A stretch of DNA of 64,000 nt from a plasmid (NZ_KX443399.1); one strand, 5' to 3'; shown: positions 14,643 to 49,229, counted from the stretch's first letter. Made by a program: numbers and translations. The notes: generated by a model not told the origin, from the sequence alone.

Positions 14643-14689
14643 CTGTTCGAGGGGAACATAACATTCGCAAGACCTGGCAAAGGTCCGTC

Positions 14690-18500: not shown

Positions 18501-18657
18501 CTGAGCCTGACCCAAGTCGATATTGCCAACGAATCGGACCGGTGGAATAACGAATTCGCAGCCCGAATTGCCGTGCGGTAGGCCGCACTGCTTCTAGCAG
18601 TTGGGGTGCCGCGTGGAAATGATCTGTTTTAAGGGTAGGGCTAGGGAGGGGTCGAAC

Positions 18658-19182: not shown

Positions 19183-19197
19183 CGCTAGGTCCGCGCG

Positions 19198-31357: not shown

Positions 31358-32080
31358 TTAGTCGGCGTGGTGGACCGGTTCGAGCAGTTCAGGAGAGTTG
31401 TTGCGAACGGAATTGACCGCTGTGCTCACCTCCCGCGGAATCAGATGCGGCTCGGGGATCGAGTTCACCAGGGCCTGCACGTCGTCGCGATCGGTCAGCT
31501 GCGGATCGAGCCAGTGATCGACGAACGAGTCCGGAAGGATCACCGGGCACCGATCATGGATGTGTCCGAGCGAGTCCTTGGCCGGGGCAGTCAAGACAGT
31601 TGTCGTCCATAACCACTTGTCCGGGTGGTCGTCAGGCAGGTCGGGGTTCGGCCACAACTCGTAGAGGCCGGCCATTGCGAGTACACCTTCGCCGTGCAGG
31701 TAGAACGGCGTCTTCGGTCCGTGCGCCGACTTCTGCCACTCGTAGTAGCCATCGGCCGGCACGATGCACCGTCGCCGCGCGGCGGCCGCCCGGAAGCTGG
31801 GCTTCTCGGTCACTGTCTCCGATCGCGCGTTGATCATCCGCGAACCGATCTTCGGGTCCTTCGACCACGCCGGCACCAGGCCCCACCGAACCGACGACCG
31901 GAGCTGGCGGACCGGCTCCGCCCCCGGGTCCTCACGCGGCGCACGCTCGAGGATCACCCGCACATCCTGGGTGGGGGCGACGTTGTACGACGGACCCAAC
32001 GCGGGGCCGACCGACTCGACGACGTCGAACAAGCTCCGCAGTTCACGATCTGTCGTCGTGCTCGCATAGCGCCCACACAT
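31358..32080 (-). CDS. SOS-response-associated peptidase (SRAP/YedK, DUF159), intact
   Basis: Starts 'MCGRYAS' with the catalytic Cys2. 'SYNVAPTQ', 'IVPADGYYEW', 'GHIHDRCPVIL'. Confidence 0.8.
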   Translation of the reverse strand: MCGRYASTTTDRELRSLFDVVESVGPALGPSYNVAPTQDVRVILERAPREDPGAEPVRQLRSSVRWGLVPAWSKDPKIGSRMINARSETVTEKPSFRAAAARRRCIVPADGYYEWQKSAHGPKTPFYLHGEGVLAMAGLYELWPNPDLPDDHPDKWLWTTTVLTAPAKDSLGHIHDRCPVILPDSFVDHWLDPQLTDRDDVQALVNSIPEPHLIPREVSTAVNSVRNNSPELLEPVHHAD

Positions 32081-32625
32081 GCCGAACTCCCGTCGCCGCA
32101 GGTACGGAACGGACGATACGGCCGCACGCTGGACCTGGGACGGATTCGCGCTCGTCCTGTGGAAGCGGCTGGCCGCCCAGACTGTCTTCACCCACGTCGT
32201 CCATCACGGGAACCTTTTCGATCCTCGCCGCATCTGACCTGATGAACGGGACAGGATGAGAGCCAGTTTCCAGCCGGTCGAAGTGATCCTGCCGAAGTGA
32301 GATCACAGGCGTGCCCGCACGCTCGAAGAATCCTGTCCCGTTCCACGGCGCCGTGACACCAAAATCATTCGCCCCCAATTGTTGTCGGGGGATCAACCTG
32401 CAAGGAGTGCTCGTGAATATCGTCTACCTCGCATCGAATCTGCTCGCTCTGGCAAACAATGCTCTGGTCTTCGGCGCCAACCTGAACAACCTGGGCTCCG
32501 CGCGCGTCTGAACCGAAGTTGGCAGGGGTCGTTCTCTCATTGACGGGGGAGAACGACCCCTGCCTCATTCGGCGTTGCCACTGGCCGCCGCAAGCAAACC
32601 GCGACCGGCCGATCTCGACTGGCGG

Positions 32626-32660
32626 GGAACTTTCCGCTCCGCGGCTGCATCTGACTGTGT
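32626..32660 (+). promoter_or_regulatory. ECF-type promoter (GGAAC-N16-GCATCTGA), copy 1
   Basis: GGAACTTTCCGCTCCGCGGCTGCATCTGACTGTGTAG, 45 bp upstream of the start codon at 32702. Confidence 0.6.
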
Positions 32661-32701: not shown

Positions 32702-33406
32702 ATGAGCAGCCCGGAGAACACCGTCAGTGACTACTCGCGTCTGGACGAGGTCGACAAGAACATCGACGACCTGAAGATCGACCCGATCCAGCCGGAGACC
32801 ACCGATGAGCCGGCGCCGTCGGCGGTCGAGTCGGAACACGCTGTTCCGGGTATCGACAACGGCGCGAACCCGGTCGTCATGGGTGATCCGGAGTCCGCCA
32901 CGTTCGTCGACCCGGCGTCGCCGGCCACCGCGCCGCCCGGTAACTACGCGTCGGCCCGGGACATCGACGGCGACGGGGTCGTCGACACCACGATGATCGA
33001 CCTCGACGGTGACGGTGTTGTGGATCAGATCAACCACGATACGAACGGTGACGGGGTCATCGACGTCGTCGAGACCTCCACCCGCGGCGACGGAAAGTTC
33101 GACGCGATTGAGCGTGACACCGACCACGACGGGGCCGTCGACAAGGCCGAGCTGGACATGGATGGCGACGGCGCCATCGACACCGTCGGATTCGACACCA
33201 ACGGTGACGGCAAGCCCGACGAGATCGACATGGACACAGACGGCGACGGCCGCATCGACACCGTCGCCCTCGACACCAACGGTGACGGCACATTCGACTA
33301 CATGGGCATCGACACCGACGGTGACGGCCTGGCCGACGAGATCCTGACCGATGCCGGCCAGACCGGGGACTGGAACCAGGTCCCGGACGCCTCCGACCTC
33401 ATCTGA
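32702..33406 (+). CDS. Acidic secreted-type protein with about 12 D-x-D-G-D-G-x-x-D calcium-binding-like repeats
   Basis: Repeats such as 'DIDGDGVVD', 'DLDGDGVVD', 'DTNGDGVID' recur throughout the C-terminal two-thirds. Confidence 0.6.
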   Translation: MSSPENTVSDYSRLDEVDKNIDDLKIDPIQPETTDEPAPSAVESEHAVPGIDNGANPVVMGDPESATFVDPASPATAPPGNYASARDIDGDGVVDTTMIDLDGDGVVDQINHDTNGDGVIDVVETSTRGDGKFDAIERDTDHDGAVDKAELDMDGDGAIDTVGFDTNGDGKPDEIDMDTDGDGRIDTVALDTNGDGTFDYMGIDTDGDGLADEILTDAGQTGDWNQVPDASDLI

Positions 33407-33443
33407 CCCGGCCACCCACCCTGCACGGAGACGAGACCCGTTG

Positions 33444-34355
33444 ATGGACGACACCTACGGCATCAGCATCGGCGACGAGCTGATCACAGCCGCTACCGAC
33501 GAGACGACCGATCTGGCCGACATGGGTCTGGAGATCGGCGATCCGCTACTGCCCGGTCCGCCGATCCTTCCCTCAGACGTGGACACCGACCAGGAAGCTG
33601 CACCAGTCCCTTCCACACCGCCCGCGCCGGCCGAGCCACCGGCCCCTGCCGTGTCCGTGCCCGATCTCGATGAGCCGGCCGCTCCCGCAGTTGATACCGA
33701 CGCTGCGATCGTCGCGCCGGTCGAGGAACCTGCGGAAGGCACCCACGGCAATACGGCCGCCTGGACGGGGGATTGGTTCTTCCAGGAGGTCGACGGGTAC
33801 TGCGGGCCGTCGTCCGCGGCGCAGTTGGTCTCGGAGTACACGGGCCTGGACATCTCCGATCCGCAGCAGCTCGTCGACCGCGCTCTCGAGCTCGGGTTGT
33901 TCGTCGGTGGGGACCCGACGAACGGCATGACGATCACCTCGCTGGAGGTGCTGCTCGAGGACCAGGGCGTGCCGTGCCACGTGGAGTCCAGCAGCATGGA
34001 CGACCTCGCGGCCAAGCTCGATGACGGCTACGGGGTGATCGCGATGGTCGACTCGGGCGAGCTGTGGACACCCTCGGACGAGGTCGTTGAGGACGACACC
34101 GCCGACCACGTTCTCGTGGTCGCCGGCATCGACACCGACCGCGGCGTCGTCACGCTCTCCGACCCGGGGAATCCGAACGGCAACGGGCTCGAGGTGCCGA
34201 TCTCGCAGTTCGAGGGTGCATGGGCGGATTCGGGGCACACGATGCTCGTCGCGGACGACACCGACCCCGACCTGGTGGCCGATGCTCCTGCGGATGAGAC
34301 GGCGATGGCGTTGCAGCCGCGGCCGTGGGCGATGGTCGACCTGATCGGGACGTGA
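33444..34355 (+). CDS. Protein with a C39-like (papain-fold) cysteine peptidase domain
   Basis: 'FQEVDGYCGPSSAAQLVSEYTG ... DHVLVVAGID' resembles the Peptidase_C39_2 Q/C...H arrangement. The N-terminus is Pro/Ala-rich. Confidence 0.45.
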   Translation: MDDTYGISIGDELITAATDETTDLADMGLEIGDPLLPGPPILPSDVDTDQEAAPVPSTPPAPAEPPAPAVSVPDLDEPAAPAVDTDAAIVAPVEEPAEGTHGNTAAWTGDWFFQEVDGYCGPSSAAQLVSEYTGLDISDPQQLVDRALELGLFVGGDPTNGMTITSLEVLLEDQGVPCHVESSSMDDLAAKLDDGYGVIAMVDSGELWTPSDEVVEDDTADHVLVVAGIDTDRGVVTLSDPGNPNGNGLEVPISQFEGAWADSGHTMLVADDTDPDLVADAPADETAMALQPRPWAMVDLIGT

Positions 34356-34391
34356 CCGCGCATCCTGAGTCCCGGCACGTCAGAATTGGTG

Positions 34392-34428
34392 GGAACCTTT
34401 CCGCTTCTGGCTGCATCCAACCGGTAGG
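34392..34428 (+). promoter_or_regulatory. ECF-type promoter, copy 2
   Basis: GGAACCTTTCCGCTTCTGGCTGCATCCAACCGGTAGG. Confidence 0.6.
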
Positions 34429-34458: not shown

Positions 34459-34809
34459 ATGACGGAACCGGACGTGAGCCTGTGGCAGGCGCTCGGCATC
34501 TCGGCCGACGACGCCCTCGAACAGGTCCCCGACGACGTGTGGGCGTCGGCGGTCGCGCACGCGGTCGACCCGGCCACCCCCGAGGTGGACTCCTCCCTGG
34601 TCCCGGACATGGACGACTCCGACCCGGACCCGTTCGAGAGCGACGGTGACCTCGCCGCGCTGCTGCACGACGATGCCGCCGGTAGTCACGATGGGCTGGG
34701 CGGCGTTGACGACATCGACCTCGGTGACGACTTCGACGATGCCGGTGCCGACGGCCACCACCATCACGACGCCGATGATGGTCTCGACGTCGACGACAAC
34801 GGGTTCTGA
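34459..34809 (+). CDS. Highly acidic protein (Asp/His-rich C-terminus)
   Basis: 'DDAGADGHHHHDADDGLDVDDNGF'. First gene downstream of ECF promoter 2 and upstream of the sigma factor. Confidence 0.45.
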   Translation: MTEPDVSLWQALGISADDALEQVPDDVWASAVAHAVDPATPEVDSSLVPDMDDSDPDPFESDGDLAALLHDDAAGSHDGLGGVDDIDLGDDFDDAGADGHHHHDADDGLDVDDNGF

Positions 34810-34932: not shown

Positions 34933-35460
34933 GTGACTGATGGGGAATTGCTGGCCTTGTGCCGGCAGGGGCACGAGACCGCGTTCTCGGAGTTGGTGGG
35001 CCGCTACCGGAACCGCCTGTGGTCGATCTGTTTCCGGGTGACCGGCAACCGCGAGGACGCCGAAGAAGCCGTCCAGGACACGCTGACTTCCGCGTGGCAG
35101 AACCTGCACAAGTTCCGGGGCGACGCGAAGGTCTCCACCTGGCTGTACCGGATCGCCGCCAACGCCTCCCTGGCCGTGGTGCGCAAGCGCAAGGAAACCG
35201 TCGCTGACCTCGACGTCATCGAACTCGAAGACCCCGCCCCGCTCACCGCGGACAGGGTCGCCGACGTCGACGCCGTCCGCCGCGCCCTCGCCGAGCTGCC
35301 CGAGGACTTCCGCGTCGCGGTCGTCCTTCGCGAGTTCGCCGAGATGTCCTACGCCGACATCGCTGAACACCAAGGCATCCCGGTCGCCACCGTGAAAACG
35401 CGCATCAACCGGGCCCGCAAACAGCTGATCACGCTGCTCGCACCGACCCAGACCGGGTAG
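34933..35460 (+). CDS. ECF (sigma-70 family group IV) RNA polymerase sigma factor
   Basis: Region 2 'RYRNRLWSICFRVTGNREDAEEAVQDTL' and region 4 'LPEDFRVAVVLREFAEMSYADIAEHQGIPVATVKTRINRARKQL'. Confidence 0.85.
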   Translation: MTDGELLALCRQGHETAFSELVGRYRNRLWSICFRVTGNREDAEEAVQDTLTSAWQNLHKFRGDAKVSTWLYRIAANASLAVVRKRKETVADLDVIELEDPAPLTADRVADVDAVRRALAELPEDFRVAVVLREFAEMSYADIAEHQGIPVATVKTRINRARKQLITLLAPTQTG

Positions 35461-35467
35461 GCCGGCG

Positions 35468-35656
35468 GTGACAGAAGACCTGCCTGAGACCGAGCGTTTG
35501 CGCCGCGAGCTCGAGATGCTCGCCGACGTCCGTGCCCGCATCCGCGACTCTGTCGGCCCCGATGCCCGGATCCCGACCGGCACCGTGGACGCCGTTCTCG
35601 ACGACTACAACGCCGCCCTCGAACGTGAACGAGGCGACGACCCGGACGTGGAATGA
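35468..35656 (+). CDS. Small acidic protein (possible anti-sigma or partner)
   Basis: 62 aa, immediately 3' of the sigma factor gene. Confidence 0.3.
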   Translation: MTEDLPETERLRRELEMLADVRARIRDSVGPDARIPTGTVDAVLDDYNAALERERGDDPDVE

Positions 35657-36174
35657 CCGCCGAGTACGACGAGGACGAGATCGACGAGTGGCCAAGCCGA
35701 ATGGGTCGCACCCCGATCGGACCTGCGATCCACGTGCAGTTCGCCAAGGAAGCACACCTCGCGCTGATCGCTGTCGCCGAGCCTTTCGGGCAGCGTCGAC
35801 GCAGTGCCGTCATCCGTGTCGCGATCGGCCGCCTACTCGCGGACGGCACCGACCTGGACGCTCTGGTGCGTGAGAGAGAGGCGAACCGTGCCACCAGGCC
35901 GGTCTTCTCGAGCATCGTGAACATGCACCTCGGTCAGGAACTGGCCGACAACCTCTCTCGCGTCGCCCGCGACCTTGGCACCAATCGGACCGAACTGATC
36001 CGCATCGCCGTGGACCTCTTTCTCGTCGACCTCACGCAACTGCGTCTCGTCGGCACCCCGTTCGACCTCGAAACCGCGATCAACGCCGAAATCTTCAACG
36101 GCGAAGCAAACCGTGACCTACTGATCAGACGCCGATTGCGCAGGGAGGCCGAACGTCTCGGCACTGCCCAGTAG
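35653..36174 (+). CDS. Protein with two tandem ribbon-helix-helix modules
   Basis: 'IHVQFAKEAHLALIAVAEPFGQRRRSAVIRVAIGRLL' and 'VNMHLGQELADNLSRVARDLGTNRTELIRIAVDLFL'. Confidence 0.45.
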   Translation: MTAEYDEDEIDEWPSRMGRTPIGPAIHVQFAKEAHLALIAVAEPFGQRRRSAVIRVAIGRLLADGTDLDALVREREANRATRPVFSSIVNMHLGQELADNLSRVARDLGTNRTELIRIAVDLFLVDLTQLRLVGTPFDLETAINAEIFNGEANRDLLIRRRLRREAERLGTAQ

Positions 36175-36603
36175 CCGTGCTTCTTGCCGTGCGTGAGGTG
36201 GGCGGCCATTGAACCGTGTGGCTCGGTCACCGAGAAGTCGTCGGCCGGTGGCGCGGCCTGTGGGTTACGTTCCAATTCAGGGGCGGGGAGCCCCGGAATC
36301 AGGGGAGGGGAATCGAGCATGGGTGCAGCAGCATTCGTCCGCGACCGGGAAGCAGTGGGGAAGCTGCTCACGGTGGCGGCCACGATCGTCGTTCCGTACG
36401 CGCTCTGGCCGCTGGTCATGGTGTGGGCGGTCCTGTACTTCAGCACATCCGGGGTTAAGCGCCTGGCCACTCGGAGGTGAGATCAGCCGTCGGGCAGTGG
36501 CTGCACGCCGGGGGACGTGTCATCTTCCCAGCTGACGGCCGCGAATGGGAGATCGGACGTGTGGTGGCGCGGCGGTACGACCTTGCGCCGGGGCGTCGGG
36601 TCC

Positions 36604-37320
36604 TTACGGGTTGGTCGTGGTGACGGTGCCGTCGCCTTCGACGAACAGTCGGTAGCCGAAGTCCTTGAGGGGATTGTCGGGGCTGGTTCGCGCGTACTGG
36701 GCGAGCGACATCACTGCTCCACACGGTTTCGTGTCAAGCTTGAGGACGAAGAATGCTGCGGACATATCGCTGGTCCTTGCCTGAATGCCAGCAGTGCCAA
36801 GAGGTTTGTCGCCCACCTCCTTGGACAGGTCCGTGGCGCGTGTGTAGGTGACCGGCTGCCCGTTCAGTGGGCTGGTCGAGTCGATCGAAGAGTCCCTGTT
36901 CTGAGCGGTGTCGAAGCCCATGCAGTCGATCGGCCAAAGGTGCCAGGTGACTGCCTCGTTCACCATCTTGTTGGTCGTCGCCCGGTCGTTGTCCACACTG
37001 CGGATGAAGTCGGTAAAGCTGATCGTCGACAGGTCATGGCCCGGCCAGGACACGATGTAGATGGATTCCTCCTCGACGCCGAAGAGGGCTCGGCTATCGG
37101 CGGCGGTCAGCTCAAAGGCGCGGGCGCCCTCGGGAAGATCGGTATTGAACGTCGCCGAGCCGACCGTGAACTGGTCGGCGTAGACGTGCGCCTCCTCGGA
37201 TGCGGAAGTCACCTGGTCATCTGGTGCGTCGGTTGAACATCCGGCGATCATGGAGACGACGGTGGCTGCCGCGATCACCGATGCAGCGAGGCGGCGGGTT
37301 CCGGAAGCAAGCGTGGTCAT
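36604..37320 (-). CDS. Lipoprotein
   Basis: Signal peptide with the lipobox 'VVSMIAGCS'. Last gene of the dynamin operon. Confidence 0.55.
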   Translation of the reverse strand: MTTLASGTRRLAASVIAAATVVSMIAGCSTDAPDDQVTSASEEAHVYADQFTVGSATFNTDLPEGARAFELTAADSRALFGVEEESIYIVSWPGHDLSTISFTDFIRSVDNDRATTNKMVNEAVTWHLWPIDCMGFDTAQNRDSSIDSTSPLNGQPVTYTRATDLSKEVGDKPLGTAGIQARTSDMSAAFFVLKLDTKPCGAVMSLAQYARTSPDNPLKDFGYRLFVEGDGTVTTTNP

Positions 37321-37351
37321 GTGGGATGAACTCCGTTTCGGTGAGCGGTGG

Positions 37352-39193
37352 CTACAGCAGGCCGGTGCGCTGCATGAAGGACTTCGCGGCCGCCGTGTCC
37401 GGAAAACCCACCGACGTGATGATGAGTCCGCTGTCCATGCTGGCGAACTGAGTGTTGACGAGTCCGTTCTTGTCCTCAATTCGGGTTGCGGCTGTCCGGT
37501 TAGTGTTCTCGGACAGCAGTTCCGGCTTGTCGTACTCGCGCCATCCGAGAACGGTCTTCTTCGCCTCCGACTTATTGACACGTGCTGTGTAGGTGAGTGG
37601 AGCGAGCGGGTCCAGGCCTTGGGCGAGTGGTGAGTTTGTGTCGAGTCTGCATGTGACTGCCGCCTCCCCGTTGGCGGAGAATCCGGATACGAGGCAATCG
37701 CTTGCCCTTTCAAGGCTGGGCGGAAGAGCTGCGACGACCGATTCACGTGTAGCGGGATCGGCCCTAACTCCCGTCGAGGGTGTGGAGGAAGTCGATCCCG
37801 GCGCTGTCGACGGCAAGGATCCAGATGAGGACGACGCATTTGGGTCCCCCTCGCCGTTGCCGAGCGCCTGGGCGACGACGATGCCCCCACCGATGACCAC
37901 GACCGCGGCGAGCGCGGCGGCCCCGATGAGCAGGGGCTTGCGGGACTTCGCGGCAGTGGTGGGCTGGTCCACGTGCACGTCGGCAGGAAGTCGCTGCGGA
38001 GCAGGCTGCTGCGGACCGGCCCAGCTAGACGCGGGCACGGGTGTTGTGGGCGATGGCGTAGCCGGCGGTGCTGTGGGTGCCGGCGCCAGCGCCTGGGTGG
38101 CGATGAGTGCGCCGCGGGCGACGACGGTCTTGGGGTCGTCGAGGGTGGCGATCGGGCCGAGGGCGGCGAGGCGCTGGTGCACGAGCGGGATCCGTGAGGA
38201 GCCGCCGGTCAGGTAGAGGGCTTTGAGGTCGCCGCCGGTGATGCCGGCGTCGGCGAGGGTGGCCTGGGTGAGGGAGACGGCGCGGTCGATCTCGGGGGCG
38301 ATGAGGTCGTCGAACTCGTCGCGGGTCAGCGACAGGGTTTCCTGCTGGCCAGGGGCGGCGACGGTGATCGTCGCGGATGGGGCCTCGGACAGCAGCTCTT
38401 TCGCGCGGCGGATGGAGTCCTCGAGTGCGCGCAGCACGTTCACGGGTGCTTCTCGGCGCAGGTAGTCGAGAAGTTCGGGGTTGGATTCGCGGAGTTCCTG
38501 GTCGACCCAGCGGCGGATGATCGCGTCGAGGTTCTTGCCGCCGAGGCCGTTGTCGCCGCGGGCGGCGATGACGGTGAATCCGCCGGTGTCGGTGGCGGTG
38601 AGGACGGCGATGTCGAGGGTGCCGCCGCCGAAGTCGAACACCGCGATCTTCTCGCCCGCGGCGATGGTGTCGGTGCGGGTGTAGAAGTGCGCGGCCGCGC
38701 GGGGCTCGGACACTGTCGTGACGCGATCGCCGGTGAACCCGAGACGCCCCGCGGCCGACAGCAGGACCTGGATCTCCTGCGGGGACCAGCCTTCCGGGTG
38801 CGTGAGGACCAGGCGGGCCGGGGGTTGCCCGTCGTGCGCGGCGACCGCGCGGGCGAGGACGGCGCTCAGGATCGCGGCGATCGGGAGTGCGGGGTCGAGG
38901 TCGTAGCCGTTGAGGGAGAGCATCCCGTGGCCGATGACCCGCTTCGGGGAAGGCAGGAATCCGGCCGGGTTCGCTTCGGCGCGGTTGAGGGCGACCTCGC
39001 CGACGACGATCGTGTCTGGGGATTCGACGAACACCGCCGATGGGAGCAGGTTTCCGTGGTGGGAGAGCGGCAGGGTGGAGATGGTGCCGCCGATCGCGTC
39101 GGTGTGCGCGGCGGCGGTGTTCGAGGTGCCGAAATCGACTGCCAGTGACCAGGATTGCGGTGCCATTGCCTGTCCTCTTCCGTTCTCGTTCAT
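37352..39193 (-). CDS. Hsp70-family (actin-like ATPase) protein with a C-terminal TM segment and an extracytoplasmic domain
   Basis: 'LAVDFGTSNTAAA', 'IAVFDFGGGTLDIAVL' and 'LYLTGGSSRIP' match Hsp70 phosphate-1, phosphate-2 and adenosine motifs. A hydrophobic stretch 'LLIGAAALAAVVVIGGGIVVA' follows. Confidence 0.75.
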   Translation of the reverse strand: MNENGRGQAMAPQSWSLAVDFGTSNTAAAHTDAIGGTISTLPLSHHGNLLPSAVFVESPDTIVVGEVALNRAEANPAGFLPSPKRVIGHGMLSLNGYDLDPALPIAAILSAVLARAVAAHDGQPPARLVLTHPEGWSPQEIQVLLSAAGRLGFTGDRVTTVSEPRAAAHFYTRTDTIAAGEKIAVFDFGGGTLDIAVLTATDTGGFTVIAARGDNGLGGKNLDAIIRRWVDQELRESNPELLDYLRREAPVNVLRALEDSIRRAKELLSEAPSATITVAAPGQQETLSLTRDEFDDLIAPEIDRAVSLTQATLADAGITGGDLKALYLTGGSSRIPLVHQRLAALGPIATLDDPKTVVARGALIATQALAPAPTAPPATPSPTTPVPASSWAGPQQPAPQRLPADVHVDQPTTAAKSRKPLLIGAAALAAVVVIGGGIVVAQALGNGEGDPNASSSSGSLPSTAPGSTSSTPSTGVRADPATRESVVAALPPSLERASDCLVSGFSANGEAAVTCRLDTNSPLAQGLDPLAPLTYTARVNKSEAKKTVLGWREYDKPELLSENTNRTAATRIEDKNGLVNTQFASMDSGLIITSVGFPDTAAAKSFMQRTGLL

Positions 39194-40641
39194 CAGCGGC
39201 GGGCCATCATCGCGTAGGTGGCCAGCAGTGCGGTCAGTGCGGCGTCTTCGGCCGCGGACATCGTGGAGATCGACTGCCGCTGCACCCAGGCCAACCGCTC
39301 GGCGATCGCCGCCTGCACGTCGGGGTGTCCGGCGGCCGGGGTGAGGCCGACGCGTTCGGCATCAGTGGTGCCGAGCAGGATCCGGTTCAGTTCGTCGACG
39401 ACGGGGGAGTCGGGGTCGGCGGCGAGCATGCCGCGCAGGCACCCGAACAGCACGACGTCATCCATCACCGGTTCGCGGCGCACCTGGTGGACGATGAGCC
39501 GGATGTGGTCGCGCTGGGGGTGGGTGTAGGCGAGCTGCTCGAGCTCGTGGACGATCCGGCCGGCGCGGTGGATCGCGGCGAACCGGCCCAACGTCTGGTG
39601 CAGGACCTGCTGCAACGTCGCGATCCCGGAGCGGTCGGAGAGCCACTGGTTCAGCGCGTGCGCGCCGCCGGTGGCGGCGCCGCGGCCGCGGATTAGCCCG
39701 TATTCGCCGACCAGGTCGAGCAGCCGGTCCCGCAGCTCCGGGGTCAGCGGGGCGGGAGTGTCGGAGTCGACGAGGTCGATCAGCTCGAACGGATCCAACC
39801 CCGCGAGGGCGGCGACGGCGCGGGCGTCGGCCTCGGTGAGCCGGCCGGTGTGGCTGGTCTCGGCCAACAGGCCCGCGACCGGAAGCACGGTCAGCACGGT
39901 GCCGTCGAGGGCGCGGGCGAGGGTCTGCGCGTACTCGTGGGCGTGGCCGAGCGGATCACGCTGCCCGAGCGCGCCTTCCCCGAACCCATCCGCGCGCGAC
40001 AGCACGCCCAATGTGTTGAGCGGGGTGAATCCGAGCTGACGCAGAAAGCTGATCTCGTCGGCGCGCGGCACCGAGTCGAACAGGAACACCGCGGCATCGG
40101 CATCGACGGAGGCGGAGCGGGTCTGCTCGAACCCGTCGATCAGCGCCCGCCGGGTTGCGGCGTCGTTCTCCACCGTCAGGGTGGCGAGGCCCGGGGTGTC
40201 GATCAGGGCGAGGTCGCGGATCGCGGCTGAGGGCAGGAACCGGTGCACGTAGGCGATCTCGGTGACTGGCCGGCCGAGGTCGGTGGCGTGGCCGCGTTCG
40301 ATCGGACGCTGTGTCCGCTGGCCGTCGAGGCCGACGACCTCAATCCGCGAGGGTGCCCCGTCCTGGTAGACGGCGACGACGTTGGTGGCCTCGAGCGCCG
40401 CGGTCTCGGCGACCGGCGCCCCGATCAGCGCGTTCACCAGCGTCGACTTGCCCGCCTTCAACCGCCCGACGACAACCACCCGGGGCGGTGACCACAGCGT
40501 CCGGCCGATCCGGTTCGCGTGCGCGACCAGATCCCCACCGAGACCGGCGAGGGCGTGCAGGCTCCGGTCGAGGACCGCACGCACCGGATCGAGCACCGGC
40601 TGCCCCGGCGGCAACTGCTGCGGGATGCTCGGATGCACCAT
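39193..40641 (-). CDS. Bacterial dynamin-like GTPase
   Basis: P-loop 'GRLKAGKSTLVNALIG' and switch 'DTPG'. Confidence 0.7.
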   Translation of the reverse strand: MVHPSIPQQLPPGQPVLDPVRAVLDRSLHALAGLGGDLVAHANRIGRTLWSPPRVVVVGRLKAGKSTLVNALIGAPVAETAALEATNVVAVYQDGAPSRIEVVGLDGQRTQRPIERGHATDLGRPVTEIAYVHRFLPSAAIRDLALIDTPGLATLTVENDAATRRALIDGFEQTRSASVDADAAVFLFDSVPRADEISFLRQLGFTPLNTLGVLSRADGFGEGALGQRDPLGHAHEYAQTLARALDGTVLTVLPVAGLLAETSHTGRLTEADARAVAALAGLDPFELIDLVDSDTPAPLTPELRDRLLDLVGEYGLIRGRGAATGGAHALNQWLSDRSGIATLQQVLHQTLGRFAAIHRAGRIVHELEQLAYTHPQRDHIRLIVHQVRREPVMDDVVLFGCLRGMLAADPDSPVVDELNRILLGTTDAERVGLTPAAGHPDVQAAIAERLAWVQRQSISTMSAAEDAALTALLATYAMMARR

Positions 40642-42546
40642 CTATGCCACCCCCGCAGTGCTGGTGGCCGGCGCCTGCGCGGCCGCGGTCAGCTGGGCGA
40701 TGACGTTCTCGATCTCCTGGCACTTGGTGGTGATCACCCGCTGGTTCTTCGACAGCCGAGTGACCGTCGCCTCCCGGGTGGCTGCGTCGAGGCGGGCAGC
40801 TTCCTTCGCGTCGGCGATCTGCGCCTGGACCTGCTCCATCGTCGTCTTCACATGGTCCCGGTAGCGGATGACGATCTCGGGCCGGCTCATCGACAGCGTC
40901 GCCTCGAGCATCCGGGCCGTCGTCAAGCGGGCGGTGGCCAGGGTTTCCCGCAGCCAGGACAGCAGATTCGACTTCCCGCTGCGCATCGCCTTCCAGCCCA
41001 GGTTCACCCCGACCCAGACGACCCCGGCCACCGCGCCGACACCGATCAGCGCGCCGAGCATGCTGGTGCCGATCATGCCCATCGTCAAGATCGACGGATC
41101 CAACAGCCCCTGACGCTTGCTGGCCACCTCACCGGTCGTCAGCCGCGGATCCAGCGATGCAATGACCTGCTGCTCGATCTCCGCCCACACGACCTCGGAG
41201 TCGAACAGTTGCATGACGATCGCCCGGACGCCATCGAGGAACGCCTGCACGGCGGCGGTCATCGCGCCCTGGAGATCCTTTTCGATCTGCGCGGTGAAGT
41301 GCTGCGGATTGCGTCGCAGCACCGCCATCCCGGACTTGTTGATCGTTGTCGTCCACCGGGCCTTGATCTCCTCGAGGCGTTCGTCGAGCACCGCCAGCGC
41401 GGCCTGCCGGGCGAGGGTGAGGTCCCTGCCGAGATACTGCTCCCACTGCCCGGAGTGGTCCTTCAGCTCCTGAAGCCGGTCTCGTTCGGCGGTCAGCTCC
41501 GGCAACGCGGCACCGGAATCCTGCGCGATCGCGATGTCGGCGGCGTTCTTCGCGTTGATCTTCCGCAGCCCCTCGAGCGCGGTCCGCAACCCGTCGGCGG
41601 CGGGCAGCGCGGCTCCGAGGTCGAGCCGAGCGCGGATCTCCGCCCGTAGCTCCGCGATCCCCGAGGCCCGTTCCCCGGCCAGGCGGCGGGCCGGATCGGC
41701 GTGGTCGGCCGCGGCGAGCGCGCGCAACGAGGACACCCCGATGACCGGGATCTGCCTGCGCAGATGCTCCTGAAACAGGCGGCGGTTCTCGGCGGCGATC
41801 GGCTGCCACCGCCGTAGGTTCTTGTCCGTCTTCGTCACGGCGACCACGACGGAATCCACTGTCGCCGAGGCACCGCGGATGAACTCCATTTCCGGCGCCG
41901 TGAGCGGGGTCGTCGCATCACACACGACCACGAGCACGCACGCGGTTTCGGCGGTGCGGGCGGCGAGCTGCGCGTGCGCCGGATCCAGACCACCCGCACC
42001 GGGGGTGTCGACGACGACCGCGCCGCCGAGAAGGTCGGTCGCGGTGGCCACCACCGCACCGGTCGGCAGCACCTCGGTGCCCGGGTCGACCACGCGCCGC
42101 CCGCTGGTGGTGATCCAGTCGGCCAGCTCGGCGCGGTCGATGCGCTGCACCCCGCCCGGGATCAGCAGCTCCGCGGCGCCGGCGGGGAGGGTGTCGGTGG
42201 CCGGGACGAAGTGCACCGTCGCCGACGTCGACGACGCGACATCGACCGGGGACGCCCCACGCTCTCCGATCAGGGCGTTCACCAGCGACGACTTTCCGCG
42301 CTTGACCTCACCGACCACGACCACCGACCGGGTTTGGGTGTCCGCGCGTGCCTTCGCTTCCGCGAGATCGGCGGTCGCCGCGTAGCTGTATTTCCGCAGG
42401 ATCGACACCGCCGACGTGAGCACGGATGACGCCTGGTCATCGAGAGAGAGGCTGGTCGGTGCGGTCGATAGTGCAGGCACGGCGGCAGCCGACGACGCGA
42501 CAGATCCCCCAGACGATTCCACGACACTTCCCCCAGATGGTCCCAA
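40642..42546 (-). CDS. Bacterial dynamin-like GTPase (second member of the pair)
   Basis: P-loop 'GEVKRGKSSLVNALIG', 'VVDTPGAGG', followed by a long alpha-helical stalk. Confidence 0.7.
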   Translation of the reverse strand: MGPSGGSVVESSGGSVASSAAAVPALSTAPTSLSLDDQASSVLTSAVSILRKYSYAATADLAEAKARADTQTRSVVVVGEVKRGKSSLVNALIGERGASPVDVASSTSATVHFVPATDTLPAGAAELLIPGGVQRIDRAELADWITTSGRRVVDPGTEVLPTGAVVATATDLLGGAVVVDTPGAGGLDPAHAQLAARTAETACVLVVVCDATTPLTAPEMEFIRGASATVDSVVVAVTKTDKNLRRWQPIAAENRRLFQEHLRRQIPVIGVSSLRALAAADHADPARRLAGERASGIAELRAEIRARLDLGAALPAADGLRTALEGLRKINAKNAADIAIAQDSGAALPELTAERDRLQELKDHSGQWEQYLGRDLTLARQAALAVLDERLEEIKARWTTTINKSGMAVLRRNPQHFTAQIEKDLQGAMTAAVQAFLDGVRAIVMQLFDSEVVWAEIEQQVIASLDPRLTTGEVASKRQGLLDPSILTMGMIGTSMLGALIGVGAVAGVVWVGVNLGWKAMRSGKSNLLSWLRETLATARLTTARMLEATLSMSRPEIVIRYRDHVKTTMEQVQAQIADAKEAARLDAATREATVTRLSKNQRVITTKCQEIENVIAQLTAAAQAPATSTAGVA

Positions 42547-42672
42547 CCCCGCGCGGATCCCCCAGTTGATCCACGACCGTCCTAGAGGCTAACCACCCCG
42601 CCCGGAAAGCCGTGCAGGCGGCCCAATTGCGCAGGCACCGCACGAACCAGAAGGGCCGGACAGGCGATCTCG

Positions 42673-42709
42673 GGAACCTTCTCGTGGCCGATTGCATCTG
42701 ACTGAGTGA
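42673..42709 (+). promoter_or_regulatory. ECF-type promoter, copy 3
   Basis: GGAACCTTCTCGTGGCCGATTGCATCTGACTGAGTGA. Confidence 0.6.
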
Positions 42710-42759
42710 CGCGATCGGAAGAACCGTCCTCGCGAACTTCGGAAGGAATCGAGCAGGCC

Positions 42760-43341
42760 ATGACTACTCCCGCACCGCAGAACACCGGCACCACGAGCGA
42801 GTCGAGCATCCCGGAGGCGACGTTCTCGTTTGGGGCGTCGGGCTCTGTCGCGGGCTCGTCGGTCGATGCGTTCGAGGTCGACCTGAGCGACATGCTCGAT
42901 GGCCCGGGTTCGAGCGAGGTGTCGATGCAGTCCTTCGATGGCGGTATCGCTGCCGGGGGAGGGATTTCGGTCGGGGGCGGTGTCGAGGTCTCCATCGGCG
43001 CACCGGGCGGGATCCCCGAGGTCAGCATCGACGCGGGCGGCCAGTTCGCCGCCGATGGCCAGTACGGGGCGTACGGCAGCTACGACGATGTCGACCTGAG
43101 CGTCGACGCCGACACCGGCGAGAGCGAGGTGTCGATCGACTCCGCTGAAGCTGGGCTGTCTGGGTACGGAGGTGCGGCCGGCGGCGTCGAGTTCGGTGTC
43201 GATCTCGGTGTGAGCCCGCTCGACGCTGTCCCGGAGGTCGCTGTCGATACCGGGTTCGAGTTCGCCGCGGACAACGGATTCGACATCGGTGGCGGCTACG
43301 AGCACGTCGAGATCACCCAGGACGACGGCGCCGCGATGTGA
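42760..43341 (+). CDS. Acidic Gly/Ser/Asp-rich repetitive protein
   Basis: Repeats of 'VS.D...GG...'. Sits 50 bp downstream of ECF promoter 3. Confidence 0.45.
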   Translation: MTTPAPQNTGTTSESSIPEATFSFGASGSVAGSSVDAFEVDLSDMLDGPGSSEVSMQSFDGGIAAGGGISVGGGVEVSIGAPGGIPEVSIDAGGQFAADGQYGAYGSYDDVDLSVDADTGESEVSIDSAEAGLSGYGGAAGGVEFGVDLGVSPLDAVPEVAVDTGFEFAADNGFDIGGGYEHVEITQDDGAAM

Positions 43342-43358
43342 CAGGGCAGCGCATTCCC

Positions 43359-43396
43359 GGGAACCTTTTGCCTTCTCGCTGCATCAGACCTTGTGA
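43359..43396 (+). promoter_or_regulatory. ECF-type promoter, copy 4
   Basis: GGAACCTTTTGCCTTCTCGCTGCATCAGACCTTGTGA. Confidence 0.6.
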
Positions 43397-43487
43397 GCAC
43401 CAAAACCGGGGGAGCGGACCTGCGCCGCGCGTAGCGCGCATCGGCCCGCCGAGCTGCACGAACGAACACCTACGGAGGGAAGAGACG

Positions 43488-44699
43488 ATGCGAGTGAAGA
43501 TCGCACCGATAGCTGCGGCCGCGGCCGCCACGGCGGTCCTGTTGACCGGGTGCGGCACCGGATCCGCTGACGAGCCGGCGCCGGAGCAGGTGGCGGGCGA
43601 CGTCGCGGTGGTCGATGCGAGCATCCTCGACACCGGCGGCTTCCGGACCACCCCGCAGGCGCAGTTCACCACGATCGGTGACGACTTCCGGGGCCGCTCG
43701 ATCGAGGGCCAGCGGATGGCCGAGTACGTGGTCAATCCGATCGAGATCGACCCGCAGCTGACGGACCTGACCGAGATGTCGACGTACGTCATCAAGGACG
43801 GCAAGTCTCTGAGCACCCTGCTGCCGGACCCGATCCCGCAGGCCGCCGTCGACAACGGCATGCTCGCCGGGTTCTCCTCGGCCCGCTCCACGGCCGGCCG
43901 CGAGGACGATCAGTCCCTGATCAACGCCGTCCTCCGATTCCCGGACGCCGCAACCGCGCAGAAGGCCGCTACCGCGCTGCACGAGGCGACGATGACCACC
44001 GACTACGGCGCCGGGCTGCCGCAGGCGGGTGCGATCGACGTCCTGCCCAGCACGCTGGTCAGCAACCGCGAAACGGCCGGTGAGATCGCCACCAACGCGT
44101 TCACCCCGTACAACGAGTACGTCCTCTACCAGTGGACGAACACCCCCGTCGCGGAGAAGGACTGGGCGGCGAAGACCATCGCGAAGACCGTCCGCGATCA
44201 GGGCCCGCTGATCGAGAAGTTCGCGGCCACCGCGCCGGGCGACTTCGCGAACATCAAGGTCGACGTCGACAGCGTGCTGCGTCTGACGATCCCGACCGAG
44301 CGCACCTCGACGAGCGAGTTCGCCGTCTACGGCCCGCGCGGCGCTTCGCACTTCGCGAACGATCCGGCCACCAAGCTCGCGATGTTCGAGGCCACCGGCA
44401 CTACCCGCCAGGCCGTCGACCAGACCACCGTCTACCTCTCCCAGACGGAAGAGGGCTCGAAGAAGCTCGCCGAGCAGATGGGCGCTGCCTTCGAGACCGG
44501 CAGCGGCCTGACCCCGACCACGGCGCCGGCGAACGTCCCGAACGCCAAGTGCTGGACCAAGGACACCCCGCAAGGGGTGGGAACCAAGTGCCTCGTTCAG
44601 CACGGGCAGTACGTCGGCGAGATCACCACGATGGACAACGAGAAGCAGGCCCACCAGCTCACCGCCGCGCAGTACCTGATTCTCACCTCGCCGAAGTGA
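43488..44699 (+). CDS. Lipoprotein (403 aa)
   Basis: 'MRVKIAPIAAAAAATAVLLTGCGTGS' contains a lipobox. RBS GGAGGGAAGAG. Confidence 0.65.
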   Translation: MRVKIAPIAAAAAATAVLLTGCGTGSADEPAPEQVAGDVAVVDASILDTGGFRTTPQAQFTTIGDDFRGRSIEGQRMAEYVVNPIEIDPQLTDLTEMSTYVIKDGKSLSTLLPDPIPQAAVDNGMLAGFSSARSTAGREDDQSLINAVLRFPDAATAQKAATALHEATMTTDYGAGLPQAGAIDVLPSTLVSNRETAGEIATNAFTPYNEYVLYQWTNTPVAEKDWAAKTIAKTVRDQGPLIEKFAATAPGDFANIKVDVDSVLRLTIPTERTSTSEFAVYGPRGASHFANDPATKLAMFEATGTTRQAVDQTTVYLSQTEEGSKKLAEQMGAAFETGSGLTPTTAPANVPNAKCWTKDTPQGVGTKCLVQHGQYVGEITTMDNEKQAHQLTAAQYLILTSPK

Positions 44700-49128: not shown

Positions 49129-49192
49129 TCGCCACACCGTCGGCCTGGGCGGCCGTTCGCCTGGTGCAGCACCCGTTTGACATCGAAAGTCG

Positions 49193-49229
49193 GGAACCTT
49201 TCTGCGGCAGAACGCATCTGAATGTGTGA
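49193..49229 (+). promoter_or_regulatory. ECF-type promoter, copy 5
   Basis: GGAACCTTTCTGCGGCAGAACGCATCTGAATGTGTGA. Confidence 0.6.

Follow-up and report, generated by a model that had tools for sequence, protein, structure and literature searches.

Four co-directional open reading frames, designated DLP1, DLP2, HSP and LPP, are located on the minus strand at positions 36604-42546 of the window, i.e., the whole stretch of 64,000 nucleotides (NZ_KX443399.1) that was analyzed. The source of the window was confirmed to be a pVAPN-type plasmid, the virulence plasmid of Rhodococcus (Prescottella) equi. At the DNA level, pVAPN plasmids of P. equi were 95-96% identical, and identity reached 99.6-99.9% over positions 1-15621, comprising the relaxase gene and the virulence island; DLP2 showed 99.6% protein identity in the plasmid comparison. 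The relaxase is of the MobF type, and the plasmid is linear and conjugative or mobilizable. The four genes had originally been described as an operon and candidate module. This delimitation was too narrow, since the functional unit also includes a DUF7373 lipoprotein, a C39-like peptidase, a protein with calcium loops and an ECF sigma factor whose putative promoter motif recurs. The features are as follows:

32207..32238, plus strand, ECF-type motif upstream of an unannotated stretch containing only a small ORF candidate (32311-32511)
32624..32655, plus strand, ECF-type motif preceding EFh and C39
32702..33406, plus strand, EFh, protein with nine tandem DxDxDG loops of predicted calcium-binding type (Pfam EF-hand_5, 32.6 bits)
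33351..34355, plus strand, C39-like (papain-fold) cysteine peptidase (Pfam Peptidase_C39_2, 33.6 bits)
34390..34421, plus strand, ECF-type motif GGGAAC-N16-GCATC preceding h116 and the sigma factor gene
34459..34809, plus strand, h116, small Asp/His-rich acidic protein with an N-terminal motif kept in 7 loci
34933..35460, plus strand, ECF sigma factor limited to regions 2 and 4 (Pfam Sigma70_r2 64.9 bits, r4_2 63 bits)
36604..37320, minus strand, LPP, lineage-specific lipoprotein of 238 aa with a Mog1/PsbP-like fold
37352..39193, minus strand, HSP, Hsp70 nucleotide-binding domain, transmembrane helix and outward domain; likely start 39166
39193..40641, minus strand, DLP2, shorter partner dynamin-like GTPase (Pfam Dynamin_N and MMR_HSR1)
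40642..42546, minus strand, DLP1, IniA-like bacterial dynamin-like GTPase (Pfam Dynamin_N) with a conserved hydrophobic membrane paddle
42671..42702, plus strand, ECF-type motif in the DLP1/h211 intergenic region, facing h211 and away from DLP1
42706..43341, plus strand, h211, Gly-rich acidic protein divergent from DLP1, no signal peptide
43358..43389, plus strand, ECF-type motif ahead of the DUF7373 lipoprotein gene
43488..44699, plus strand, DUF7373 lipoprotein (Pfam DUF7373 N 174 bits, C 98 bits; lipobox LLTGC)
49191..49222, plus strand, outlying ECF-type motif before the gene of a small secreted protein (49264-49509)

Both GTPases matched the Pfam model Dynamin_N (DLP1 48.5 bits, DLP2 35.4 bits, cut-off 27), and DLP2 additionally scored 37.4 bits against MMR_HSR1. 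The G1 (GxxxxGKS) and G3 (DTPG) motifs, as well as G4 (TKxD in DLP1, SRAD in DLP2), were kept across 14 homologues of each protein, so that the prediction of intact P-loops and DTPG switches held for both GTPases and neither appears to be a pseudogene. The start of DLP1 is ambiguous (TTG 42546, GTG 42522 or GTG 42477). Its hydrophobic segment at residues 486-514, the paddle, is predicted to insert into the membrane, and DLP2, in which a hydrophobic segment is absent, is predicted to be soluble. The best solved relative of DLP1 is IniA of M. smegmatis (6j72; 57 bits, E 2.4e-14), the alignment covering mostly the GTPase domain and neck; for DLP2, IniA was followed by the C. jejuni DLP 5owv. Neither protein matched the Pfam DO-GTPase models.

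In HSP, a Pro-rich linker connects the cytoplasmic Hsp70 nucleotide-binding domain to a single transmembrane helix, and a Ser/Thr-rich linker and an alpha/beta domain follow on the extracytoplasmic side. Its match to Pfam HSP70 (113 bits) was confined to the nucleotide-binding domain (DnaK residues ~5-377), and it remained far below every cut-off of the NCBIfam equivalog models. The phosphate-1 (DFGTSN), phosphate-2 (DFGGGTLD) and adenosine (TGGSSRIP) motifs and the equivalents of K84 and E163 are invariant in the family; judged by these residues, the domain is predicted to be ATPase-competent. HSP thus shares every catalytic and nucleotide-contact motif with DnaK and HscA, but lacks their interdomain linker, substrate-binding domain and lid and carries a transmembrane helix and an extracytoplasmic domain instead. 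The helix is the one strong hydrophobic segment (residues 422-440), preceded by basic residues and followed by two invariant cysteines. Outside, a linker of ~40 aa leads to a folded domain of ~135 aa that carries these cysteines (AlphaFold2 pLDDT 91.6). Accordingly, the earlier description of HSP was correct regarding nucleotide-binding motifs, membrane segment and missing substrate-binding domain, but not in depicting the outside part as merely Ser/Thr/Pro-rich. Among non-Prescottella homologues, this outside domain retained ~24-35% identity compared to ~65% for the ATPase domain. A DnaJ or GrpE gene was not present in the window; the Hoyosella locus harbors a weak GrpE-like gene.

The abutment of DLP1 and DLP2 noted in the original prediction was confirmed (the stop codon TAG adjoins ATG), whereas the one-nucleotide overlap of DLP2 and HSP was not. 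HSP more probably starts at ATG 39166, as suggested by the ribosome-binding site GGAAGAGGA, the fit to the family alignment and a near-identical 604-aa cluster, and a 26-nt gap would therefore follow DLP2.

The real start of LPP corresponds to MTTLASG..., followed by the lipobox IAGC; a 428-aa ORF reaching 37890 was rejected as an artefact of the longest-ORF rule. LPP shares its Mog1/PsbP-like fold with the mycobacterial envelope proteins LpqN, Mtc28 and Apa. All 10 clusters of its family originate from Prescottella or close relatives, and in P. agglutinans the gene follows the sigma factor gene rather than the Hsp70-like gene. LPP, previously counted as a module member, is thus an accessory of the Prescottella lineage. 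The island's conserved lipoprotein is the DUF7373 protein, usually encoded divergently from DLP1 and found in 7 related genome loci and also in loci L083 and L085-L087; envelope lipoproteins of the island are this protein and, in Prescottella, the local LPP.

EFh is acidic (26% Asp+Glu) and devoid of a signal peptide. None of its homologues, found in 12 related genome loci, possesses a transmembrane or signal segment; the protein is predicted to be cytoplasmic and to bind calcium through its loops. The C39 peptidase has an acidic N-terminal region and an uncertain start codon; its residues Gln145, Cys151, His253 and Asp271 do not vary among 9 homologues. The peptidases of Leifsonia, Tessaracoccus and Anabaena carry DxDxDG loops as an N-terminal fusion. 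An N-terminal hydrophobic segment is absent from the homologues, and the Actinoplanes and Tessaracoccus copies feature one near the C-terminus. The h116 gene always follows the ECF-type promoter and precedes the sigma factor gene; its product, which had no Pfam match, represents a candidate regulator of the sigma factor. Homologues of h211 were not detected outside pVAPN relatives.

The best named model for the ECF sigma factor was NCBIfam SigM (142 bits, under the cut-off of 190); orthologues scored 140-214 bits in 12 related loci, and an anti-sigma factor was not identified. The promoter motif GGGAAC-N16/17-GCATC occurred seven times in the window versus 0.6 expected matches, a number reached by 0/100 shuffles, and six matches are strong sites, each ahead of plus-strand genes. 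The site in front of h116 and the sigma factor gene suggests autoregulation. In relatives, the motif was located directly upstream of HSP (L003, L004, L005, L019, L083) and also upstream of DUF7373, EFh and the sigma factor operon, the DUF7373 arrangement being repeated in L003, L004, L005, L007 and L083. Altogether, module loci (222 kb) contained 34 sites and control loci (805 kb) a single one. The weight matrix for the promoter was scored on the loci it had been trained on and is partly circular, whereas the exact-pattern shuffle test is independent. Since no ECF-type site precedes the DLP1-DLP2-HSP-LPP operon in the window, this pVAPN operon is probably expressed independently of the island sigma factor. 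Likewise, the DLP pair has no ECF-type site of its own in most relatives.

The four-gene set of pVAPN is one copy of a conserved and widespread actinobacterial island of ~12 kb. Its invariant core comprises the heterotypic dynamin-like GTPase pair DLP1 and DLP2 and the single-pass membrane protein HSP, and EFh is a core partner of this trio. Usual partners are EFh, the C39 peptidase, at least one envelope lipoprotein and a dedicated ECF sigma factor. Linkage of the Hsp70-like gene to dynamin-like genes in other genomes had been named as the test of the module, and the neighbourhoods show such linkage: genome loci anchored on HSP contained both DLP genes in 8/9 cases when the flank measured 6 kb or more (12/15 at 3 kb or more), and, in the reverse direction, DLP1 and HSP accompanied DLP2 at all 24 DLP2-anchored metagenome loci with enough flank. 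At the latter loci, EFh (22/24), the ECF factor (13/24), C39 (12/24) and DUF7373 (10/24) were also encountered. Linkage of HSP to the DLP pair was observed in Rhodococcus, Gordonia, Williamsia, Millisia, Corynebacterium, Hoyosella, Smaragdicoccus, Leifsonia, Actinoplanes and Tessaracoccus, and the gene set is kept in shuffled order across Mycobacteriales, Leifsonia, Actinoplanes and Tessaracoccus. Plasmid location, considered special in the original prediction, is not a distinguishing trait, as 28 PLSDB plasmids and many chromosomes carry the island. In C. freiburgense, a chromosomal island is inserted between core genes; here, in R. koreensis and in others, chromosomal islands lie away from transfer genes. 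Neighbours in R. koreensis, Hoyosella and pVAPN include Lsr2, SRAP and toxin-antitoxin genes. The one cyanobacterial relative examined, Anabaena pANA01, encodes the DLP pair and a C39 peptidase without an Hsp70-like gene.

An experimental study of the module or any of its members was not found in the literature searched. Among known systems, IniA and IniC of the mycobacterial iniBAC operon (~640 and ~493 aa) likewise combine, in tandem and within the Mycobacteriales, a longer DLP that binds membranes with a shorter one, and are similar in size to DLP1 (611-634 aa) and DLP2 (482 aa). Both island proteins have IniA as their nearest solved structure, the sequence relation being distant, and an iniBAC-like role, in which the membrane is kept intact under envelope stress, is proposed for the island. 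However, the annotation features no IniB-like or IniR-like gene near the island, and to our knowledge the iniBAC neighbourhood lacks an Hsp70-like gene as well as genes for a C39 peptidase, a calcium-loop protein and an ECF sigma factor. The Eleos anti-phage system (LeoA/LeoBC, formerly 'Dynamins') has two adjacent dynamin-like genes, as in the island; it is not known to include an Hsp70-like protein, a sigma factor, a calcium-loop protein or a peptidase. An association of dynamin-like proteins with an Hsp70-fold ATPase, initially thought to be without precedent, has a forerunner in the cyanobacterial 'chaperone clade', in whose conserved genomic context a DnaK-domain gene comes after the dynamin-like one (Jilly et al. 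2018, PMC5827413). This clade belongs to another phylum, the neighbourhood remark includes neither the architecture of the DnaK protein nor a regulon, and the likeness is one by description. Moreover, DO-GTPase/GAP1 conflict systems, which are enriched in actinobacteria, associate two paralogous GTPases with an Hsp70-family protein, in some cases without peptide-binding domain, and with peptidases, GrpE and variable partners, many of the components being membrane-associated (Kaur et al. 2020, PMC7159879). DO-GTPases constitute a TRAFAC family of their own, in which Walker B has a glutamate and GAP1 is an obligate partner (PMC7159879), whereas the island encodes dynamin-family GTPases with DTPG and no GAP1.

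Based on these results, a sigma-factor-linked response to cytoplasmic-membrane or envelope damage is tentatively proposed as the best explanation, at slightly less than an even chance. The sigma factor would turn on the HSP, lipoprotein, calcium-loop and peptidase genes via GGGAAC-N16/17-GCATC promoters. The DLP pair would assemble at damaged or curved membrane and seal or remodel it in a GTP-driven manner, as proposed for IniA and DynA of B. subtilis, and recruitment or recycling of the DLP assembly may be coupled by the membrane-anchored HSP ATPase to a cue on the envelope side or to a partner lipoprotein. More speculatively, the DxDxDG protein and the peptidase might together read calcium entering via a breach and, equally speculatively, cleave a regulator, possibly h116; the basis of the calcium-sensing step is the loop motifs and a single domain fusion. 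The proposed response is consistent with the linkage, the conserved catalytic motifs, the signals that indicate topology and the repeated occurrence of the promoter motif, with IniA being a membrane-fission protein induced by cell-wall stress, with the fusion of DxDxDG loops to the peptidase in distant members, and with the fold shared by LPP and mycobacterial envelope proteins. Sigma control of the GTPases stays putative because the ECF-type site is missing before the DLP genes in the window and in most relatives, and chaperone-type action of HSP on DLP polymers would be without precedent because HSP has no substrate-binding domain.

The patchy, island-like and often plasmid-borne spread, the shuffled order and the fast-evolving outside domain are equally typical of anti-phage or anti-mobile-element conflict systems, and such a system, resembling Eleos or an analogue of the GTPase-HSP70-peptidase systems described by Kaur et al. 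(2020), is the main rival, although a rather unlikely one. Here, invaders would be recognized at the envelope by the variable HSP ecto-domain and the lipoproteins, with a threshold set by the GTPase pair and HSP. The effectors would be the DLPs and the peptidase, which would close the membrane to incoming DNA, postpone lysis or trigger abortive infection. DLP1 aligned end to end to the PADLOC model LeoBC (E 1.4e-11) and DLP2 weakly to LeoA, but scores were low (42 and 25 bits), the DLP2 match comprised the P-loop only, and 0/7 partner proteins matched PADLOC models. Kaur et al. (PMC7159879) class combinations of paired GTPases, HSP70, peptidases and variable partners as conflict systems, whereas the GTPases of the island are of the dynamin family with DTPG as Walker B, without Pfam DO-GTPase match or GAP1-like partner. 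The accessory nature of the island (28 plasmids, the C. freiburgense insertion, the Lsr2, SRAP and toxin-antitoxin neighbours), the rapid divergence of the HSP outside domain and the lineage-specific lipoproteins would fit a conflict system; however, the conserved genes include no nuclease, NADase or pore-former, and an own ECF sigma factor with autoregulatory promoter and lipoprotein targets corresponds to the classic design of an envelope-stress regulon. The absence of homologues from 50,697 phage genomes is neutral in this regard.

Vesicle-based or other unconventional export, for which the DLP pair would pinch off vesicles with EFh, h211, h116, C39 or lipoproteins, is regarded as improbable. 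Vesicle roles have been proposed for IniA/IniC of M. tuberculosis and LeoABC of E. coli, and membrane fission by IniA as well as four strongly acidic, signal-less island proteins that share their regulation with lipoproteins and with a small secreted protein point in this direction. However, the DxDxDG proteins and a papain-like peptidase with intact active site equally fit cytoplasmic roles, the tail-anchored peptidase of distant members suggests action at the inner membrane face, and nothing in the data indicates cargo selection. Finally, a housekeeping function in mating-pair formation, entry exclusion or partition of pNSL1/pVAPN-type linear plasmids, suggested by the MobF-encoding plasmid itself and by many matches on Rhodococcus and Gordonia plasmids, is highly improbable and largely refuted because chromosomal copies exist away from transfer genes, and its variant of functionally meaningless adjacency fails because chance is excluded by the 24/24 linkage across rearranged gene orders.

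Based on genome scans in both directions, two intact dynamin-like GTPases (DLP1 and DLP2) and a membrane-spanning, ATPase-competent protein with an Hsp70 domain (HSP) were shown, at the level of genome sequences, to form an obligate genomic partnership. The genes are part of an island of about 12 kb on a linear Prescottella (Rhodococcus) equi virulence plasmid of the pVAPN type. The four co-directional genes of the original prediction, including that for a 238-aa lipoprotein (LPP), are present on the minus strand as described:

40642-42546, minus strand, DLP1, dynamin-like GTPase (start at TTG 42546, GTG 42522 or GTG 42477)
39193-40641, minus strand, DLP2, dynamin-like GTPase, first base directly after the DLP1 stop codon
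37352-39193, minus strand, HSP, Hsp70-like gene
36604-37320, minus strand, LPP, lipoprotein gene beginning 31 nt past the HSP stop, with a GGAG ribosome-binding site ahead

For the DLP1 homologue, GTG 42477 was chosen as start by RefSeq, whose labels for these genes are only 'dynamin family protein', 'GTPase' and 'Hsp70 family protein'. The predicted abutment of DLP1 and DLP2 was retained, whereas the 1-nt overlap of DLP2 and HSP was not, since HSP probably starts at ATG 39166 rather than at the ATG overlapping the DLP2 stop codon, as deduced from the ribosome-binding site GGAAGAGGA, the N-termini of all homologues and the near-identical 604-aa cluster P0001. No promoter-like site was found when the operon was scanned for sigma-70 promoters, and the terminator scan of the operon returned one terminator-like site only, which is below the number in shuffles. 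The region 36000-43500 shows 95-96% identity to pVAPN03-56 and KX443401, and the DLP2 protein is 99.6% identical to its KX443401 counterpart. Window positions 1-15621 are 99.6-99.9% identical to the part of both plasmids comprising the MobF relaxase and the virulence island; the matching pVAPN region is annotated with the MobF relaxase and with LysR and Lrp/AsnC regulators and is assumed to represent the vap virulence island, acquired by horizontal transfer. The G+C content of positions 6001-20000 is 0.55-0.60 versus 0.65-0.71 elsewhere.

In the forward scan, an alignment of HSP homologues was searched against one genome per species, yielding 79 loci whose six-frame ORFs were searched with the window proteins. 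HSP relatives scoring above approximately 170 bits and having enough flank possess both DLP homologues within 8 kb, barring L012, L013 and L008, the latter being a short Dietzia contig. Of the 9 HSP-anchored loci with 6 kb or more on either side, 8 encode both DLPs, as do 12 of the 15 with 3 kb or more. Linked loci include those of Leifsonia, Actinoplanes, Tessaracoccus and Smaragdicoccus, so that the association reaches past the Mycobacteriales, and no DLPs were found at the loci of more distant Micromonospora Hsp70-like proteins and of ordinary DnaK. Called-gene tables of C. freiburgense, Hoyosella rhizosphaerae, R. koreensis and P. agglutinans independently show the DLP-HSP linkage. For the reverse scan, an alignment of DLP2 homologues was searched against metagenomes, which resulted in 80 loci; with a single DLP2 sequence as query, nothing was found in the metagenomes. 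DLP1 and HSP were each encoded at all 24 reverse loci having 6 kb or more of sequence on each side, a figure that overstates the number of independent observations because near-duplicate contigs of the same study are included. The HSP neighbourhood analysis proposed in the original prediction supports the linkage, and the reverse scan does so as well.

Two Rhodococcus chromosomes (L012, 5493-9815; L013, 8010-12331) carry tandem Hsp70-like ATPase paralogues, which match HSP via the ATPase domain and transmembrane region only, lack its outside domain, have no DLP genes within 8 kb and probably represent a sister family with another partner. In Hoyosella rhizosphaerae (L086), a 142-aa gene product with a weak match to GrpE, the Hsp70 nucleotide-exchange factor, is encoded between DLP1 and DLP2 (5693-6121), and DLP2 is separated from HSP by two inserted VbhA antitoxin genes.

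The Hsp70 match of HSP is confined to the nucleotide-binding domain, and every alignment ends at approximately DnaK residue 377. The phosphate-1, phosphate-2 and adenosine motifs are present, and every nucleotide-contact motif is invariant in the HSP family. Beyond the ATPase domain, HSP continues with a Pro-rich linker; a single transmembrane helix at residues 422-440, preceded by basic residues, then leads into a Ser/Thr-rich linker and a C-terminal outside domain, which features two invariant cysteines and is unrelated to the Hsp70 substrate-binding domain. HSP has the ATPase motifs in common with canonical Hsp70 proteins (DnaK, HscA, HscC), whereas the substrate-binding domain and lid, which follow a hydrophobic linker, were absent in alignments to Hsp70 families and are replaced. 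Accordingly, the predicted architecture was right concerning the nucleotide motifs, the transmembrane segment and the missing substrate-binding domain; its Ser/Thr-rich part proved to be the linker preceding the two-cysteine domain. Searching the outside domain against 1.8 billion representatives returned 18 matches, 7 of which, at 564-646 aa, are HSP-type proteins of full length that carry the domain C-terminally, while the other 11 (86-360 aa) are fragments or possibly standalone proteins. This domain evolves much faster than the ATPase domain. Pfam searches at E-values up to 5 gave nothing credible for the outside domain, LPP, the small Asp/His-rich protein h116 and the Gly-rich acidic protein h211.

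Both DLP1 and DLP2 passed the Dynamin_N cut-off of Pfam. The motifs GKS (G1), DTPG (G3) and TKxD or SRAD (G4) are kept across 14-17 homologues, at least 14 of each protein, confirming the intact P-loops and DTPG switches that had been predicted. The putative hydrophobic paddle of DLP1 (residues 486-514) is conserved, and DLP2 is without a paddle. M. smegmatis IniA represents the nearest solved structure to both, scoring 57 bits with DLP1, where the alignment extends into the neck (query residues 60-373), and 28 bits with DLP2. These values are below those within the island family, where members from other orders reach 113-204 bits for DLP1 and 142-222 bits for DLP2, so that the DLPs are regarded as distant paralogues and not orthologues of IniA/IniC. 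Judged by their annotations, the genes around the operon include no IniB-like or IniR-like gene. Regarding the Eleos system, the LeoBC model matched DLP1 over its full length (42 bits, residues 35-611), and the LeoA profile matched DLP2 with 24.6 bits over the P-loop stretch only (residues 52-93). A scan of phage genomes for DLP1 homologues found none. An identity as DO-GTPases was rejected, as Walker B reads DTPG in all homologues and Pfam gives Dynamin_N and MMR_HSR1, neither DO-GTPase1 nor DO-GTPase2; none of the neighbouring proteins matches a Pfam family of the GAP1 partner.

In order to find conserved neighbours, window ORFs at 28 to 52 kb were searched against related loci. The following genes were of particular relevance:

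32702-33406, plus strand, EFh, protein with nine DxDxDG calcium loops in a 13-residue period, 26% acidic, no signal peptide, Pfam EF-hand_5
33351-34355, plus strand, C39-like cysteine peptidase, Pfam Peptidase_C39_2 above cut-off
34459-34809, plus strand, h116, Asp/His-rich small protein, directly upstream of the sigma factor gene
34933-35460, plus strand, ECF sigma factor, Pfam r2 and r4_2 only
43488-44699, plus strand, DUF7373 lipoprotein with signal peptide and lipobox ...VLLTGC

Among the 24 DLP2-anchored loci, EFh was present in 22, the ECF sigma factor in 13, the C39-like peptidase in 12 and the DUF7373 lipoprotein in 10; the predicted four-gene unit is thus too narrow, these genes being conserved neighbours as well. 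The commonest order in Mycobacteriales is DUF7373 (reverse orientation), DLP1, DLP2, HSP, EFh, C39, small acidic protein and sigma factor (all forward), and on pVAPN the EFh-to-sigma block is convergent to the DLP-HSP block. The catalytic residues Gln145, Cys151, His253 and Asp271 of the C39-like peptidase do not vary among 9 homologues. Leifsonia, Tessaracoccus and an Anabaena plasmid encode the peptidase with DxDxDG loops fused to its N-terminus, which argues for loops and peptidase working together. No anti-sigma domain was recognisable among the sigma factor neighbours, of which h116 is the sole constant one. The genes of its homologues in L003-L007 and P. agglutinans (L083) always have the promoter motif on one side and the sigma factor gene on the other; the proteins share the N-terminal motif L..LGI..DD....PD.VW..A...A.DP......D..LVP.MDD as well as a tail that is rich in Asp and His and contains HHD-type repeats. 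This protein may be an unconventional sigma factor regulator or a metal-binding protein.

LPP, which the original prediction had counted as a module member, is an accessory rather than a core component. None of the 19 related genome loci encodes a homologue, and the family comprises ten clusters among 5.8 billion proteins, all from Prescottella or close relatives. For 6 of the 10 clusters, the contig is as long as that of an HSP homologue, suggesting that both genes are on one contig. In P. agglutinans, LPP follows the sigma factor gene and not HSP; this moved position and the Prescottella-limited distribution indicate a lineage-specific island accessory. The LPP signal peptide ends in the lipobox ...SMIAGC, and the lipobox cysteine is kept in LPP and DUF7373 homologues. 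Kinship of LPP to the HSP family was rejected, as profile-profile comparison found no relation.

Downstream of the sigma factor gene, a 62-aa helical ORF (35468-35656, plus strand) and a gene for a 173-aa CopG-type ribbon-helix-helix protein (35653-36174, plus strand) follow, and a second copy of the trio is present in P. agglutinans (L083, 20946-21682). Furthermore, a gene for an SOS-response-associated peptidase (SRAP) adjoins the island in pVAPN03-56 (L001, 3359-4081), presumably corresponding to window positions ~31358-32080 (minus strand). Such a gene is also located beside the island on the R. koreensis chromosome (L087, 2465-3217), where Lsr2 genes flank the chromosomal copy; these neighbours are a hint of a mobile context common to both copies.

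When upstream regions were searched for dyads, the motif GGGAAC-N16/17-GCATC was identified. The form GGAAC-N15-17-GCATC occurs 7 times in the window versus 0.6 expected, and none of 100 shuffles reached 7. Six of the seven sites are strong copies of the extended motif cGGGAAC(C/A)TTT...GCATC(T/C)(G/A)A, which recurs in related islands of other genera, and all are on the plus strand, five of them directly ahead of a clear gene:

32207-32238, plus strand, strong ECF-type site ahead of a small ORF candidate only (66 aa, 32311-32511)
32624-32655, plus strand, strong ECF-type site ahead of EFh
34390-34421, plus strand, strong ECF-type site ahead of h116 and the sigma factor gene
42671-42702, plus strand, strong ECF-type site ahead of h211
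43358-43389, plus strand, strong ECF-type site ahead of the DUF7373 lipoprotein gene
49191-49222, plus strand, strong ECF-type site ahead of a secreted protein gene at 49264

In related loci, the motif is located directly upstream of HSP, even where HSP follows DLP2 (L004, L005, L083), as well as ahead of DUF7373, EFh and the sigma factor operon, and in Actinoplanes (L019) it heads an HSP-DLP1-C39-DLP2 operon. Both in the window and in L004-L007, the sigma operon is preceded by a GGAAC-type -35 site, representing the sigma factor's own predicted promoter. The DLP pair is usually without the motif (weak sites in L006 and L020 only), and no ECF-type site, low scores included, was found in the window ahead of the DLP1-DLP2-HSP-LPP operon. 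In total, 34 sites were counted in 222 kb of module loci versus 1 in 805 kb of control loci, a contrast that is partly circular because the weight matrix was trained on module loci; the shuffle test is independent of this training.

Site 32207 points into approximately 400 bases (32240-32620) without an annotated gene in the closest RefSeq plasmid, and its product may be either an RNA or a small protein. The gene at 49264-49509 (plus strand), 5 kb outside the island, encodes a protein of roughly 80 aa that has two cysteines and a signal peptide and for which the pVAPN03-56 annotation gives no more than 'hypothetical'.

Paired bacterial dynamins are known, their partners and triggers for the most part are not, and B. 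subtilis DynA provides an analogue for membrane remodelling and sealing. The island belongs with the paired bacterial dynamin operons, among which comparative genomics defines it well. It would respond to membrane or envelope damage, with the sigma factor driving the GGGAAC-N16/17-GCATC promoters; the DLPs would remodel or seal the membrane, by analogy to IniA and DynA, and HSP would link the envelope side to DLP assembly. The main rival explanation is an anti-invader conflict system, for which the accessory and often plasmid-borne nature of the island, the much faster divergence of the HSP outside domain relative to the ATPase domain and the resemblance of the GTPase, Hsp70 and peptidase theme to the conflict systems of Kaur et al. 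can be put forward. However, PADLOC support is weak, no partner protein matches a PADLOC model, and the regulon design is of the envelope-stress response type. Concerning the original reading as a candidate membrane-remodelling or defence module, the linkage was substantiated and the four-gene unit with its lipoprotein abandoned.

Extending the envelope-damage reading, the island would be a bacterial counterpart of eukaryotic calcium-triggered membrane repair, including a peptidase-released sigma factor and Hsp70-dynamin resealing, which we consider improbable. Calcium entering via a membrane breach or an invader's channel would be read by the DxDxDG-loop protein, which would activate the papain-like peptidase by a calpain-like logic, which the fusion in distant members supports. 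The peptidase would destroy the small acidic protein holding the ECF sigma factor, and the membrane-anchored Hsp70 ATPase would load or recycle a heterotypic dynamin polymer, resulting in a resealed membrane. The calcium, peptidase and anti-sigma steps are speculative and draw on the motifs present, on the fusion of loops and peptidase and on where the genes lie. If true, the small acidic protein would represent a new kind of anti-sigma factor, and a bacterial dynamin-Hsp70 partnership would resemble that of dynamin with Hsc70 and auxilin.

The island provides bacterial dynamins with a fixed partner set, namely a membrane-anchored ATPase with the Hsp70 nucleotide-binding domain only, a calcium-loop protein, a cysteine peptidase and envelope lipoproteins, and with a predicted regulon featuring an explicit promoter motif. 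What these dynamins respond to and work with thereby becomes testable in the tractable hosts Corynebacterium, Rhodococcus and Gordonia. Moreover, HSP represents an uncharacterised Hsp70 architecture with a transmembrane helix and an outside domain in place of the substrate-binding domain. The studied copy resides on the backbone of R. equi pVAPN, a ruminant and human-associated virulence plasmid, and the IniA/IniC pair, to which the DLPs are distantly related, has an effect on the drug tolerance of M. tuberculosis relatives.

Full-text literature searches turned up no paper on a dynamin-Hsp70 module in actinobacteria and no mention of 'DUF7373'; these genes are unmentioned in the pVAPN comparative paper, and the text of the ECF reclassification paper is likewise silent on any context with Hsp70, dynamins or GTPases. 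For a cyanobacterial 'chaperone clade', a DLP gene followed by a DnaK-domain gene was recorded without further analysis (PMC5827413), so that novelty does not extend to the bare idea of a dynamin-Hsp70 neighbourhood. No description was found of the actinobacterial family combining an Hsp70 ATPase domain, a transmembrane helix and an outside domain, of its strict two-way linkage with the DLP pair, of the partnership with calcium-loop protein and peptidase, or of the sigma factor regulon and its promoter. On the Anabaena sp. 90 plasmid pANA01 (L168, 717-8470), a DLP pair adjoins the C39-like peptidase, whose N-terminus carries DxDxDG loops, and one neighbour matches DO-GTPase2 weakly. Since an Hsp70-like gene is absent there, the DLP-peptidase link may be older than the Hsp70 link.
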